From the NCBI RefSeq assembly GCF_024502345.1, contig NZ_JALDNN010000001.1: DNA of 64,000 nt. One strand, given 5' to 3'. The DNA is from Escherichia coli. GTDB taxonomy: Bacteria > Pseudomonadota > Gammaproteobacteria > Enterobacterales > Enterobacteriaceae. The notes under the pieces are model-generated. The model was not told where the DNA came from, made no database searches, and saw only the letters and a list, made by a program, of their open reading frames with translations. Shown here in pieces: positions 31,973-38,600 of the stretch. The stretch's first letter is position 1. Each line of letters begins with the position of its first letter. The translations under genes and the position numbers were made by a program.

Positions 31973-32281
31973 CATCCAACCGCAGCACGTTCTTGCATAA
32001 GGCGTGTCTGCGGTTTTTCAACTATTCAGATACATCACTCCCATCACATTCATTCCTCCGCATCATAGGCATATAGGCTATATCACCTTGATATTTTTCT
32101 TCTTCAGATAAAAACTGTTATCTATGTATACTTTTAAACCCAATCCGTGTAGAGTCTCTGCATAAGATAGTTTGCAGTTGCCACTTCAGCTTGCGCCATA
32201 AACCGCCTGATTTTTGCCGCCACCTGGGTGATGCTGCCAACTTACTGATTTAGTGTATGATGGTGTTTTTGAGGTGCTCCA

Positions 32282-32557
32282 GTGGCTTCTGTTTCTATCA
32301 GCTGTCCCTCCTGTTCAGCTACTGACGGGGTGGTGCGTAACGGCAAAAGCACCGCCGGACATCAGCGCTATCTCTGCTCTCACTGCCGTAAAACATGGCA
32401 ACTGCAGTTCACTTACACCGCTTCTCAACCCGGTACGCACCAGAAAATCATTGATATGGCCATGAATGGCGTTGGATGCCGGGCAACCGCCCGCATTATG
32501 GGCGTTGGCCTCAACACGATTTTCCGCCATTTAAAAAACTCAGGCCGCAGTCGGTAA
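32282..32557 (+). CDS. insA: IS1 InsA
   Basis: 91 aa [43 protein letters not shown]... Confidence 0.9.
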
Positions 32558-32979
32558 CCTCGCGCATACAGCCGGGCAGTGACGTCATCGTCTGCGCGGA
32601 AATGGACGAACAGTGGGGATACGTCGGGGCTAAATCGCGCCAGCGCTGGCTGTTTTACGCGTATGACAGGCTCCGGAAGACGGTTGTTGCGCACGTATTC
32701 GGTGAACGCACTATGGCGACGCTGGGGCGTCTTATGAGCCTGCTGTCACCCTTTGACGTGGTGATATGGATGACGGATGGCTGGCCGCTGTATGAATCCC
32801 GCCTGAAGGGAAAGCTGCACGTAATCAGCAAGCGATATACGCAGCGAATTGAGCGGCATAACCTGAATCTGAGGCAGCACCTGGCACGGCTGGGACGGAA
32901 GTCGCTGTCGTTCTCAAAATCGGTGGAGCTGCATGACAAAGTCATCGGGCATTATCTGAACATAAAACACTATCAATAA
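32476..32979 (+). CDS. insB: IS1 InsB (expressed as InsAB' by frameshift)
   Basis: 167-aa ORF in -1 frame relative to insA. Confidence 0.85.
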
Positions 32980-33439
32980 GTTGGAGTCATTACCTAAGTC
33001 AGGTATAAATATAAGTGACATTGCCCAAGAATTCAAAACCTCGCGGCAAACCATTTTAAGAGCTAAAGCAAAAAATCAGACACCTGATATATAAAAATAA
33101 TCTCGGTGTGAGATTCCTTACGTTTTCCAAGCCCCCCTTCCTAGCCTTAAATGGAAAGATACTTCTAATTATAGAATTTATATATCTTACCCTACGGTAG
33201 GGCTGGCCATTCAATATCCGGTGCAGTTGATGTATCAACACGGTTCAGCAACACCCGATACTTTTTCCAGGCTTCCAGCAACAAGGTTTCTTCCTCCGTT
33301 GCGATCTCCAGATCCACAGCATCCTGAAGCGGCGCTATATGCTCACTGGCTACCTGCATCAGGCTGTTTTTTGTTTCTTCCGCCTACCTGTAATACTGAT
33401 TGCGAGTTGAATGGTTTGATTTGTCATTATCAATTCCTA

Positions 33440-33500
33440 TTGGTATTGCAATGAATGAATAATAGCAATGCGTATTAATCCAAGCAATAGCAAAACGTGT
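33440..33500. promoter_or_regulatory. Putative operator/promoter region upstream of prophage repressor (OR-like)
   Basis: Palindrome attgcaat plus repeated aatagcaa motifs; tataaa -10-like hexamer 10 nt before the repressor ATG. Confidence 0.4.
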
Positions 33501-33537
33501 TTTGACCATCAATACGCAAGCGTATAAATTAAAACTT

Positions 33538-34230
33538 ATGAAAAAAGAAACTCTTGCTGATCGCTTAAACCTAGCGATGGAACAATCTGGAATGTCTCAA
33601 GGCGCTCTTGCAAAGGCGTCTGGCGTAGCTCAACCCACAATCTGGAGACTGACAAGCGGCAACGCTCGCGGCTCAACAAAAATTGTTGAAATAGCTAATG
33701 CATTGGGTGTTCGAACAGAATGGCTCTCATCAGGCATAGGCCCGATGAGAAATGACGGTCAACAATCAGGGAAGCCTGCTGTCAGCCATTCAAAATACTT
33801 CAAGATTGACGTTCTTGATATAGAAGTGAGTGCCGGGCCGGGAGTCATCAACCGTGAGTTTGTAGAAGTTCTACGCTCGGTTGAGTACTCGTTTGACGAT
33901 GCTCGTCACATGTTCGATGGTAGGAAGGCAGAAAATATCCGCATCATTAACGTACGCGGTGACAGCATGTCAGGAACGATCGAACCAGGTGATCTGCTGT
34001 TCGTTGATATCACGGTTAAATCTTTCGACGGTGATGGTATCTATGCGTTTCTGTATGACGACACCGCCCATGTAAAGCGCCTGCAAATGATGAAGGATAA
34101 GCTACTGGTTATCTCTGATAACAAGAGCTACTCACCGTGGGACCCGATCGAGAAAGACGAGATGAACCGGGTATTCATATTCGGTAAGGTTATTGGGAGC
34201 ATGCCGCAGACGTACAGAAAACACGGATAA
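33538..34230 (+). CDS. Phage CI/LexA-like repressor (N-terminal HTH, C-terminal S24 peptidase)
   Basis: MKKETLADRLNLAMEQSGMSQGALAKASGVAQPTIWRL... and ...RGDSMSGTIEPGDLLFVD...AHVKRL (Ser/Lys dyad); ORF track starts at TTG 33502. Confidence 0.85.
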   Translation: MKKETLADRLNLAMEQSGMSQGALAKASGVAQPTIWRLTSGNARGSTKIVEIANALGVRTEWLSSGIGPMRNDGQQSGKPAVSHSKYFKIDVLDIEVSAGPGVINREFVEVLRSVEYSFDDARHMFDGRKAENIRIINVRGDSMSGTIEPGDLLFVDITVKSFDGDGIYAFLYDDTAHVKRLQMMKDKLLVISDNKSYSPWDPIEKDEMNRVFIFGKVIGSMPQTYRKHG

Positions 34231-34312
34231 TCAGCCGCGTGTTGATGAGGCTTTTGGGTAATACGCTGAAGAAAATACCTTATAAAAAATAACATTACGG
34301 GAAAGGCAAAAA

Positions 34313-34576
34313 ATGAGTAATAAAACACTTGTTAAAAAATCAAATAACTGTGTCGATGCATACGCCGACGCGTTTGGCTACTCTTCGTTTGGTGACGGCT
34401 CTCAGCGCCTAGGTTCAATTTCTTTTTTTCATAATGTAACTGAATGGCCTGTTGATGAAAGTGACGATGTTGAGAACATAAAGTACAACATTGCAACCAT
34501 TAGAATGCCCGAAGAATTGATGCTTAAATTGGCTGACTTCATTCGCGACCAGCATGACAAAGCTAAAACAAACTAA
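34313..34576 (+). CDS. Hypothetical small protein co-oriented downstream of repressor
   Basis: 87-aa ORF with SD gaaagg 6 nt upstream; no recognisable domain. Confidence 0.5.
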   Translation: MSNKTLVKKSNNCVDAYADAFGYSSFGDGSQRLGSISFFHNVTEWPVDESDDVENIKYNIATIRMPEELMLKLADFIRDQHDKAKTN

Positions 34577-36656: not shown

Positions 36657-36671
36657 CTGATTGAATTGTAA

Positions 36672-36748
36672 TGGCGCGCCCTGCAGGATTCGAACCTGCG
36701 GCCCACGACTTAGAAGGTCGTTGCTCTATCCAACTGAGCTAAGGGCGC
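36672..36748 (-). tRNA. argU: tRNA-Arg (anticodon UCU)
   Basis: 77-nt cloverleaf, reverse complement GCGCCCTTAGCTCAGTTGGATAGAGCAACGACCTTCTAAGTCGTGGGCCGCAGGTTCGAATCCTGCAGGGCGCGCCA. Confidence 0.93.
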
Positions 36749-36990
36749 GTTGATACCGCAATGCGGTGTAATCGCGTGAATTATACGGTCAACCCTTGCT
36801 GAGTCAATGGCTTTTGATCTGGTTGCTGAACAAGTGAACGACCGCGTCTGATTTTCTGATTTATTTCGCTATAGCGGCAAACAAACACACACCGCTGCGC
36901 GTCTGAATCAAGAAAACCCGTATTTTCATGTATCAAAGTACAATTTACCGCCCTAACGGAAAATTGTCCGCTCCTATGAGACTGGTAACT

Positions 36991-37623
36991 ATGAAACCAA
37001 CGTCGGTGATCATTATGGATACTCATCCTATCATCAGAATGTCTATTGAAGTTCTGTTGCAAAAAAACAGTGAATTGCAGATTGTCCTGAAAACGGATGA
37101 TTACCGCATAACCATCGATTATCTCCGAACCCGTCCTGTTGATTTAATCATTATGGATATAGACTTGCCCGGAACAGACGGTTTTACCTTCCTGAAAAGG
37201 ATCAAACAAATCCAGAGCACAGTGAAAGTGTTATTTTTATCATCGAAATCAGAATGCTTTTATGCTGGCAGAGCGATACAAGCTGGTGCTAACGGTTTTG
37301 TCAGTAAATGCAATGATCAGAATAATATTTTTCATGCCGTTCAGATGATCCTCTCCGGATACACGTTTTTTCCCAGCGAAACGCTTAACTATATAAAAAG
37401 CAATAAATGTAGTACGAATAGTTCAACGGTCACTGTGCTATCTAATCGTGAAGTGACCATATTACGTTATCTGGTTAGCGGATTATCTAATAAAGAAATT
37501 GCCGATAAGTTATTACTTAGCAATAAAACAGTTAGTGCGCATAAATCTAATATTTATGGCAAGCTAGGTTTGCATTCAATTGTAGAGCTTATCGACTACG
37601 CCAAATTATACGAATTAATATAA
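36991..37623 (+). CDS. fimZ: LuxR/NarL-family response regulator FimZ
   Basis: Start at MKPTSVIIMDTHPIIRMSIEVLL within ORF 36928..37623 (210 aa). Confidence 0.9.
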   Translation: MKPTSVIIMDTHPIIRMSIEVLLQKNSELQIVLKTDDYRITIDYLRTRPVDLIIMDIDLPGTDGFTFLKRIKQIQSTVKVLFLSSKSECFYAGRAIQAGANGFVSKCNDQNNIFHAVQMILSGYTFFPSETLNYIKSNKCSTNSSTVTVLSNREVTILRYLVSGLSNKEIADKLLLSNKTVSAHKSNIYGKLGLHSIVELIDYAKLYELI

Positions 37624-37720
37624 TATTAATTATAATTGATCATAAATATCGCATCCGCTTTCGCCGGTGATGCTGCCAACTTACTGATTTAGTGTATGAT
37701 GGTGTTTTTGAGGTGCTCCA

Positions 37721-37996
37721 GTGGCTTCTGTTTCTATCAGCTGTCCCTCCTGTTCAGCTACTGACGGGGTGGTGCGTAACGGCAAAAGCACCGCCGGACA
37801 TCAGCGCTATCTCTGCTCTCACTGCCGTAAAACATGGCAACTGCAGTTCACTTACACCGCTTCTCAACCCGGTACGCACCAGAAAATCATTGATATGGCC
37901 ATGAATGGCGTTGGATGCCGGGCAACCGCCCGCATTATGGGCGTTGGCCTCAACACGATTTTCCGCCATTTAAAAAACTCAGGCCGCAGTCGGTAA
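37721..37996 (+). CDS. insA: IS1 InsA
   Basis: Identical to 32282..32557 product. Confidence 0.9.
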
Positions 37997-38418
37997 CCTC
38001 GCGCATACAGCCGGGCAGTGACGTCATCGTCTGCGCGGAAATGGACGAACAGTGGGGATACGTCGGGGCTAAATCGCGCCAGCGCTGGCTGTTTTACGCG
38101 TATGACAGGCTCCGGAAGACGGTTGTTGCGCACGTATTCGGTGAACGCACTATGGCGACGCTGGGGCGTCTTATGAGCCTGCTGTCACCCTTTGACGTGG
38201 TGATATGGATGACGGATGGCTGGCCGCTGTATGAATCCCGCCTGAAGGGAAAGCTGCACGTAATCAGCAAGCGATATACGCAGCGAATTGAGCGGCATAA
38301 CCTGAATCTGAGGCAGCACCTGGCACGGCTGGGACGGAAGTCGCTGTCGTTCTCAAAATCGGTGGAGCTGCATGACAAAGTCATCGGGCATTATCTGAAC
38401 ATAAAACACTATCAATAA
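37915..38418 (+). CDS. insB: IS1 InsB
   Basis: Identical to 32476..32979 product. Confidence 0.85.
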
Positions 38419-38600
38419 GTTGGAGTCATTACCCGAAAAATGAAGCTTTCAATCTCAGCGACCTCAGCGACGGTGCGCCTCACCTTCGCAAGAGGTCGCT
38501 TCACGCGATAAATCTGAAACGAAACCTGACAGCGTGCCCCGCTTCTGACAAAATAGGCGCATCCCCTTCGACCTACGTAACAGATGGAATCCTCTCTCTG

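Follow-up and report, generated by a model that had tools for sequence, protein, structure and literature searches.

How the interval between fimZ and folD came to lack the sfm fimbrial operon in one Escherichia coli genome, and what part two identical IS1 elements nearby played in this, is the question raised by a stretch of contig NZ_JALDNN010000001.1 (assembly GCF_024502345.1). The whole stretch that was analysed, 64 kb in length, is referred to here as the window. It is mostly collinear with the 520-614 kb region of E. coli K-12 MG1655, in reverse orientation and at ~98% identity, and carries IS1 elements at 32227-32994 (copy 1) and 37666-38433 (copy 2). The second of these is very probably the scar of an IS1-associated deletion that removed the sfm operon. 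The window as a whole shows an argU/DLP12-type prophage locus and an sfm locus that have decayed repeatedly, both with and without the involvement of IS elements.

IS1 copy 2 and the missing sfm operon

The two IS1 elements are both located on the + strand as direct repeats of 768 bp with 0 differences, and they are the only IS1 elements in the window; identity between the copies ends exactly at both element ends. The terminal inverted repeats are 23 bp long and imperfect, matching at 18/23 positions (GGTGATGCTGCCAACTTACTGAT and GGTAATGACTCCAACTTATTGAT). The element encodes the insA open reading frame (ORF) followed by an A6C frameshift motif at IS1 position 307 and the insB' frame, with a -1 frameshift joining the two. 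The NCBIfam entry NF033558 (IS1 transposase) matches both ORFs, over profile positions 1-81 for the InsA ORF and 76-199 for the InsB' ORF, and a copy annotated as IS1B in E. coli GN05505 has the same sequence (100% identity). Copy 1 is flanked by GCCGCCACCTG on the left and TAAGTCAGG on the right, and copy 2 by CGCTTTCGCC and CGAAAAATG; the bases adjoining copy 2 are GCTTTCGCC and CGAAAAATG, and its right junction reads IS1 followed by CGAAAAATGAAGC. No target-site duplication (TSD) was identified at either copy among end-anchored repeats of 4-14 bp, and no direct or inverted cross-match was found among the four flanks, which therefore carry no signature of simple insertion, flank exchange or inversion. 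An origin by inversion was ruled out, as inverted TSD halves are absent from the four flanks. A missing 8-9-bp TSD is expected where each IS1 bounds a deletion and is no argument against the identity of the elements. The interval between the copies is 4,671 bp and holds a cI-like repressor gene, argU and fimZ. The initial annotation had described a direct, identical pair lacking target duplications in which each copy marks a rearrangement junction, and both points are borne out, with copy 2 replacing 5,906 bp and copy 1 replacing 1,336 bp.

The left flank of copy 2 stops at K-12 position 563806 and the right flank begins at K-12 557899, within the folD-sfmA intergenic region and 167 bp upstream of the window folD start codon. 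The DNA absent relative to K-12 (557900-563805; 5,906 bp) comprises the sfmA promoter region, sfmA, sfmC, sfmD, sfmH and 476 bp of sfmF. The sfmACDHF operon, which lies between folD and fimZ, is absent from the window locus except for the final 40 bp of sfmF; this 3' end (37626..37665, - strand; K-12 563845-563806) is the sole sfm remnant. It is followed by copy 2 (37666..38433, + strand), which stands in place of the missing K-12 sequence in the alignment and has no TSD, and by the 167-bp remainder of the folD upstream region (38434..38600, + strand). A promoter-like site in this remainder (38526-38554), between copy 2 and folD, is a consensus match only. The remainder also contains, just right of copy 2, a 9-bp tandem duplication relative to K-12 (38455-38472; CTCAGCGAC twice).

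The genes on either side are intact. The folD gene (38601..39467, + strand; NF008058, 542 bits) encodes a product with two amino-acid differences from K-12, and fimZ (36991..37623, + strand) encodes a response regulator that matches the FimZ equivalog NF007403 over residues 1-210 with 445 bits, the cut-off being 271. FimZ is identical to its K-12 counterpart at 209/210 residues, D112N being the sole change, and identity to K-12 over the fimZ-argU segment is 99.5%. The claim that copy 2 sits where K-12-like genomes hold sfmACDHF agrees with this fimZ-folD alignment and with a survey of 5,426 complete E. coli genomes from RefSeq, in which the operon is present (at least 80% coverage) in 4,069 and without a match in 1,137. 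These counts are in agreement with published work that found sfm in 65% of genomes, with none in phylogroup B2 and a patchy distribution in E. coli (PMC3604780). The loss of sfm is an ordinary, already known kind of IS1-driven gene loss in a locus known to be patchy. As judged from gene content, Sfm fimbriae would not be made from the window locus. Describing fimZ as an orphan regulator is fair as to position: FimZ appears to remain while its neighbouring operon has been lost.

The timing of the loss is indicated by near-identical relatives. A gam' fusion protein encoded in the prophage remnant of the window served as the lineage marker, and contigs encoding it were taken as relatives. Identity between these contigs and the window segment is 99.6-100%, at least 99.9% in the relatives whose sfm locus was compared, and they have in common the right junction of copy 1 and the prophage scars, the copy-1 right junction being common to L025, L026, L028-L030 and L034. 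One of them, L029, comes from the commensal E. coli isolate ccpm5172 (GCA_001484475.1), obtained from a healthy student (PMC7133007). In addition, GCA_050022275.1 matches 10.25 kb of the window backbone with one mismatch (99.99%) and belongs to the same clone. The window derives from a lineage of the E. coli clade that has relatives among commensal isolates. Backbone positions 38434-56883 are at most 98.6% identical to any genome of the survey set, with ~14 differences/kb that are evenly spread, and the lineage is therefore unrepresented among finished E. coli genomes. Coverage of at least 80% of positions 30000-41000, or of the prophage-scar segment 35800-36700, was found in 0/5,426 complete genomes.

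The contig L025 has flanks 99.8-100% identical to the window and a complete fimZ-sfmFHDCA-folD interval with no IS1 in it. Because L025 has copy 1 and the prophage scars together with an intact sfm operon, the loss of sfm is recent and lineage-specific rather than ancestral. Since the relatives share copy 1 and not the copy-2 junction, copy 1 is the older of the two. Measured against K-12 and L025 for copy 2, and against the undisrupted prophage end in contig L045 for copy 1, host DNA is gone exactly at the IS end, the flanks are collinear and one IS is kept. IS1 has hit the sfm operon repeatedly within this one clone. The left end of the element lies at K-12 562769 in sfmH in L029 and L033 (the L030 contig ends at the same position), at 563662 in sfmF in L034, at 563822 in L026 and L027, and at 563806 in the window. 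The sfm-locus IS1 elements of L029/L033, L034 and L026/L027 are all oriented as window copy 2.

In L026, a human gut metagenome contig, what comes after the IS1 at fimZ/sfmF is AT-rich accessory DNA with an IS903-like transposase gene (L026 8361-9507) in place of folD. The accessory DNA past this IS1 also occurs on E. coli plasmids and chromosomes, and the join may reflect either a genuine rearrangement by IS1 or an assembly chimera formed through the element. This right flank was set aside as evidence of mechanism, being unrelated accessory DNA with a possibly chimeric join.

IS1 also adjoins the fimZ or folD flank in 49 genomes of the survey set, a subset of which was inspected; orientation among these genomes is biased by retrieval and was not used as evidence. 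Simple IS1 insertions with an 8-9-bp TSD were identified at K-12 557935-943 (CFSAN064035), 558000-008 (AH21), 558117-125 (STEC384) and 558174-181 (20AR1039), as well as at the 3' end of sfmA at 558736-744 (CFS3292). The first four sites fall in the folD-sfmA intergenic region (557935-558181), which is AT-rich, with a GC content of 38.5% vs 51% for the window. IS1-bounded deletions without a TSD remove K-12 557910-561109 in T16R, 557950-559784 in G1/2 and 558793-563881 in MB52. Complex IS1 rearrangements are present in HZ13, F829 and ETEC1730, IS1 is located inside fimZ in 14EC047, and two direct IS1 copies are found in sfmD and sfmH of DETEC-S560. Among these unrelated E. coli, IS1 right flanks at 557909, 557910, 557949 and 557960 pair with deletions or rearrangements into sfm. 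In all, at least 14 independent IS1 events were characterised in the ~6.7-kb folD-sfm-fimZ interval of complete E. coli genomes, in addition to the four junctions in the clone of the window. A Shigella origin of the window, first suspected from its IS density and the loss of ompT, is not supported, given the commensal isolate among the relatives and the mostly intact backbone genes. Published Shigella genomes retain sfmA (PMC3604780, PMC6854044); the S. sonnei fimZ is interrupted by IS2, and a fimZ pseudogene has been reported as specific to S. flexneri 2457T (PMC8743557).

Recurrent IS1 at folD-sfm-fimZ may merit a look at the population level, though it is unsurprising for an AT-rich fimbrial promoter region. 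It is a speculative and rather unlikely idea that the folD-sfmA intergenic region and the fimZ/sfmF junction are IS1 hot spots at which Sfm is convergently lost, where selection (such as immune or phage pressure) could contribute beyond target preference; remoter still, the IS1-cI-argU-fimZ-IS1 unit might amplify or transpose and change the dosage of the AGA-reading tRNA.

Possible routes of the deletion and competing explanations

From the junctions described above we infer the following order of events and molecular route. IS1 would first have entered the AT-rich folD-sfmA intergenic region, a recurrent target of this element. A transposase-mediated intramolecular event would then have linked the other IS1 end to the 3' end of sfmF, with the intervening DNA discarded, and the outcome of such an adjacent deletion would be one IS1 with no target duplication. 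Loss of the TSD has been ascribed either to adjacent deletion or to recombination between IS copies (PMC11708052). The clustered IS1 right ends upstream of sfmA and the variable left ends fit adjacent deletion from an upstream IS1, and the double-IS1 genomes and the second cluster at the fimZ/sfmF junction fit the recombination route equally well. Adjacent deletion is somewhat favoured over IS1-IS1 recombination, the end product being identical.

The lineage of the window shows four different IS1 left junctions in one orientation, with the right junction known for the window only. Several points weigh against this reading of copy 2. The contigs of the relatives end inside IS1, short of their right junctions, and a pattern of fixed right and nested left ends is at most a conjecture for the lineage. 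The shared orientation of the three further junctions is weak evidence, as it has a chance probability of 1/8. No independent sequence with both exact copy-2 junctions was found among complete E. coli genomes or JGI metagenome contigs, and an exact-pattern scan of the JGI metagenome contigs for the right junction gave 0 matches. Finally, the search for sfm covers the 64-kb window, and a relocated sfm segment could be present elsewhere.

The recombination route is a sub-variant of IS1-associated deletion and a realistic possibility, if not a probable one. It proposes two direct IS1 insertions, one at the 3' end of sfmF and one upstream of sfmA, followed by RecA-dependent recombination that deletes sfm and one IS1. 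Both junctions fall in recurrent IS1 zones, upstream of sfmA on one side and at fimZ/sfmF on the other (ETEC1730, 14EC047, MB52, L026 and L034). DETEC-S560, with two direct IS1 copies inside sfm, is a precursor of the type required, and the IS1 copies in sfmH and sfmF of the relatives could be first insertions. However, no genome was found with IS1 at both exact positions, and the route takes two insertions and a recombination where adjacent deletion takes one insertion and one transposase event. Simple IS1 insertion in the relatives would be predicted to yield truncated forms of SfmH and SfmF, and look-ups for these gave no record; this is a weak test, as gene callers may shift starts or drop fragments.

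Reading copy 2 as a deletion scar presumes that the assembly is correct. It is improbable that sfm is really present between two IS1 elements whose identical 768-bp repeats were collapsed, even though the copies are 100% identical, the copy-2 junction pair is seen in no other sequence and the draft assemblies of the relatives break at IS1. Five IS elements are resolved in the window, among them the identical IS1 pair and an identical IS903-like pair, all with unique flanks, which is typical of a finished or long-read assembly, and the complete genomes T16R, G1/2 and MB52 have genuine sfm deletions of this form bounded by IS1.

The two direct IS1 copies around a 4.7-kb segment have the formal architecture of Tn9, and the segment from cI to argU and fimZ might accordingly be taken for a composite transposon that arrived as a unit. 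This is very hard to credit: the outer flanks are without a 9-bp duplication, the K-12 map places the interior (int'-argU-fimZ-sfmF') in line with the chromosomal DNA around it, one half of the 47-bp att repeat lies in the interior and the other beyond copy 1, and L025 has copy 1 and the same interior with no copy 2. The direct IS1 pair is the by-product of two separate events and not a transposed unit.

There is next to no chance that the lineage never had sfm, as in phylogroup B2 (PMC3604780), and that IS1 entered an sfm-less junction, the situation against which the initial annotation was to be tested: 1,137 of the 5,426 complete genomes have no sfm match and IS1-free, sfm-less ompT-methyltransferase-int'-folD arrangements do exist, but these belong to other lineages that lack fimZ as well, whereas in the window fimZ is intact and 40 bp of sfmF persist, with 99.5% identity to K-12, copy 2 has no TSD, and L025, with the same copy 1, the same scars and 99.8-100% identity on both sides, holds the complete operon.

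Copy 1 and decay of the argU prophage

Copy 1 lies inside a prophage remnant and marks another, earlier IS1-associated deletion, ~1.3 kb in size. The remnant is delimited by a 47-bp direct repeat at 28113-28159 and 36670-36716, which are the attR and attL of an argU-integrated DLP12-type lambdoid prophage. The attR core (28113..28159) is 100% identical to the attL copy and corresponds to the right boundary of K-12 DLP12. The remnant is ~8.6 kb in length, of which ~3.3 kb is IS sequence, and contains in order ompT', an IS903-like element, an IS3 fragment, ybcY-like sequence with an IS2-like element, IS1 copy 1, a pin/tfa stub, a cro-like 5' stub, a cI-like gene, two cargo genes, kil, the gam' fusion, DUF1317 and DUF1382 genes, and the int 3' end before argU.

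The Logan contig L045 contains the orthologous right end of this argU prophage in undisrupted form, beside ompT. Window positions 31603-32226 are 100% identical to L045 3922-4545, and positions 32995-33378 are 99.7% identical to L045 5882-6265. In the window, copy 1 (32227..32994, + strand) stands in place of the 1,336 bp that separate these matched flanks in L045 and that hold a ydfK/ynaE-like gene and most of pin, an invertase gene; Qin/Rac-type prophage ends give the same picture. Directly right of copy 1 lie the 3' stub of pin and a fragment of the tail-fibre-assembly gene tfa (32995..33388, - strand), as identified by comparison with L012-L014, L045 and K-12 tfaD (582075-581892).

The ompT side of the remnant has been cut as well. 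Only a 5' fragment of ompT remains (28582..28832, + strand), encoding a 93-amino-acid ORF with an Omptin Pfam match; it is cut at K-12 585383, and collinearity with K-12 ends at 28832. Relative to L045, ~3 kb is lost here, comprising the ompT 3' end, a hydrolase gene and tfa'. The fragment is followed by an IS903-like element of the IS5 family (28833..29889, + strand; 1,057 bp; NF033579 IS5 family transposase, 357 bits) with no TSD. A second, inverted copy of this element with 100% identity is located 27 kb away (56884-57939), where it has a 9-bp TSD and is a simple insertion inside allB. The inverted IS903-like pair is a potential substrate for an inversion spanning both IS1 copies and the interval between them. 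Next is a 196-bp right-end fragment of IS3 (29890..30085), 99% identical to K-12 IS3C (567843-568037). It is located between the IS903-like element and the ybcY-like sequence and is inverted relative to the IS3C of K-12 DLP12; the fragment is the remnant of an earlier IS3-associated rearrangement. The ybcY-like region is interrupted by an IS2-like element of the IS3 family (30274..31602, + strand) in sequence that is contiguous in L045. Its matches to IS2 TnpA and TnpB are below the equivalog cut-offs, and its match to the IS3 family entry NF033516 is above the cut-off. The flanks of this element (30250-30273 and 31603-31623) carry a 16-21-bp duplication, ACATAAAATTAACCAT(T)GATGT, that is single-copy in L045. 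This duplication is much longer than the 5 bp expected for IS2.

The remainder of the prophage decayed without IS elements. The intact prophage used for comparison, L023 (CP107197.1), has an identical repressor and is ~98.6-99.5% identical over the segments kept in the window. Relative to L023 there are three IS-free deletions, with junction overlaps (microhomology) of 5, 2 and 6 bp. The first joins tfa to the cro-like stub (33384..33388), where the tfa and cI-region alignments overlap by 5 bp, and has removed the replication and late genes; L026 and L027 hold 2.8 kb more at this junction (stf', O, ydaT and ydaS). The second is a 1,602-bp deletion at 36049/36050 that removed the gam 3' end, bet and most of exo, and it created the gam' fusion ORF (35864..36148, + strand) whose protein is also found in the relatives. 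The third is a 2,002-bp deletion with its junction at 36422-36427, corresponding to L023 10495-12496, that took out genes of the xis region together with the 5' portion of int. The final 280 bp of the integrase gene are kept as a 3' fragment (36378..36656, + strand), with only 565049-564815 of K-12 intD retained.

The cI-like repressor gene (33538..34230, + strand) is intact and encodes helix-turn-helix and S24 peptidase domains (phrog_4, 5e-69). An identical protein is encoded in intact argU prophages beside ydaS, ydaT, O and P, and the earlier label of an immunity region between the IS1 copies is correct. Downstream of cI are two cargo genes (34313..35032, + strand) encoding proteins of 87 and 147 amino acids that match phrog_4231 and phrog_3556, both of unknown function. 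The 87-amino-acid protein has no PADLOC match and the 147-amino-acid protein has only a marginal match to PbeC (E 0.004-0.009); neither has an NCBIfam match, and no Pfam match is on record. By eye, the larger protein has a hydrophobic, possibly membrane-spanning C-terminal tail. The same pair is found in L021 and L023. The pair directly follows the repressor gene, in the slot used by lambda for rexAB, and other prophages that encode the identical repressor carry in this position HipA_2 and DUF3037, SIR2_2, protein kinase, DUF6932 or HEPN cargo. The cI-downstream slot looks like a variable hot spot for defence-type genes that was kept while most of the prophage decayed. The remaining phage genes are a kil homologue (35498..35788, + strand; phrog_294 Kil, 1e-37) and the small DUF1382 gene (36176..36367, + strand; phrog_292), for which the Pfam domain was identified on the identical gene in the relatives.

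The argU segment and comparison with known systems

The argU gene (36672..36748, - strand) encodes tRNA-Arg(UCU), overlaps the attL core at 36670-36716 and is identical to K-12 at 77/77 positions; it is the sole tRNA gene identified in the window by ARAGORN. Its tRNA (UCU anticodon) reads AGA and AGG and is the only one known for AGA, argW reads AGG only, and the loss of both is lethal (PMC4652775). The initial annotation had proposed that the 4.7-kb segment between the IS1 copies is prone to deletion or amplification. The 768-bp perfect direct repeats agree with such instability in structural terms, but the deletion half of the claim calls for a qualification. A deletion between the IS1 copies would remove argU, the sole known AGA reader, and its product is therefore likely to be lethal or under strong counter-selection unless the genome has another argU copy elsewhere. 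Tandem amplification through the direct repeats would be viable in principle. The identical pair around argU is a potential amplification site and a hazard for short-read assembly.

The backbone genes of the window are mostly intact (40/42 of those fully testable), the broken ones being allB, through the IS903-like insertion, and nfrB, through an internal stop codon. The latter (21039-23273) aligns over its full length to K-12 NfrB at 99.7%, and in the relatives it is called short (720 amino acids) or split (261 and 467 amino acids). The strain is expected to be without Sfm fimbriae, functional OmpT or AllB, and its argU prophage is only a stub. Typing schemes based on the fimZ, sfm or ompT loci would be affected. 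The locus offers a clean, datable case of IS1-driven gene loss, with sister lineages both with and without the sfm deletion, and its significance beyond annotation is slight.

The prophage remnant most closely resembles the cryptic prophage DLP12 of K-12. The two are alike in the argU attachment site, in having fimZ on one side and ompT, envY, ybcH and nfrA on the other, and in homology at the int 3' end and in the tfaD/ybcY region. They differ in that the window keeps the cI-like repressor, the two cargo genes, kil and gam', which DLP12 is without, whereas DLP12 keeps the Q, lysis, nmpC, emrE and ybcK-N region that was lost from the window, in which ompT is also cut.

Tn9 consists of direct IS1 repeats flanking cargo. 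The window resembles a Tn9-type composite transposon in its direct IS1 pair and differs from it in the lack of an outer TSD and in a native chromosomal cargo that is in its native place.

The closest counterparts of copy 2 in other strains are the deletions of T16R, G1/2-G8 and MB52, which have IS1 in the same orientation as the window and no TSD in any case. On the right, their IS1 elements end at 557909 and 557949, within or close to the folD-sfmA intergenic region, or, in MB52, just past sfmA (558792); on the left, they end inside sfm or fimZ (561110, 559785 and 563882). They differ from the window in strain and endpoints and in losing the operon partially, whereas the window has lost all structural genes with fimZ spared.

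Within the IS1 family, the window copies show no structural difference, and the endpoints at K-12 563806 and 557899 alone are specific to this genome. Adjacent deletion is reportedly a classical product of IS1, described by Reif and Saedler in 1975. Copy 2 is like such an IS1-promoted deletion in that the missing DNA starts exactly at the IS1 end, one IS1 is kept and there is no TSD.

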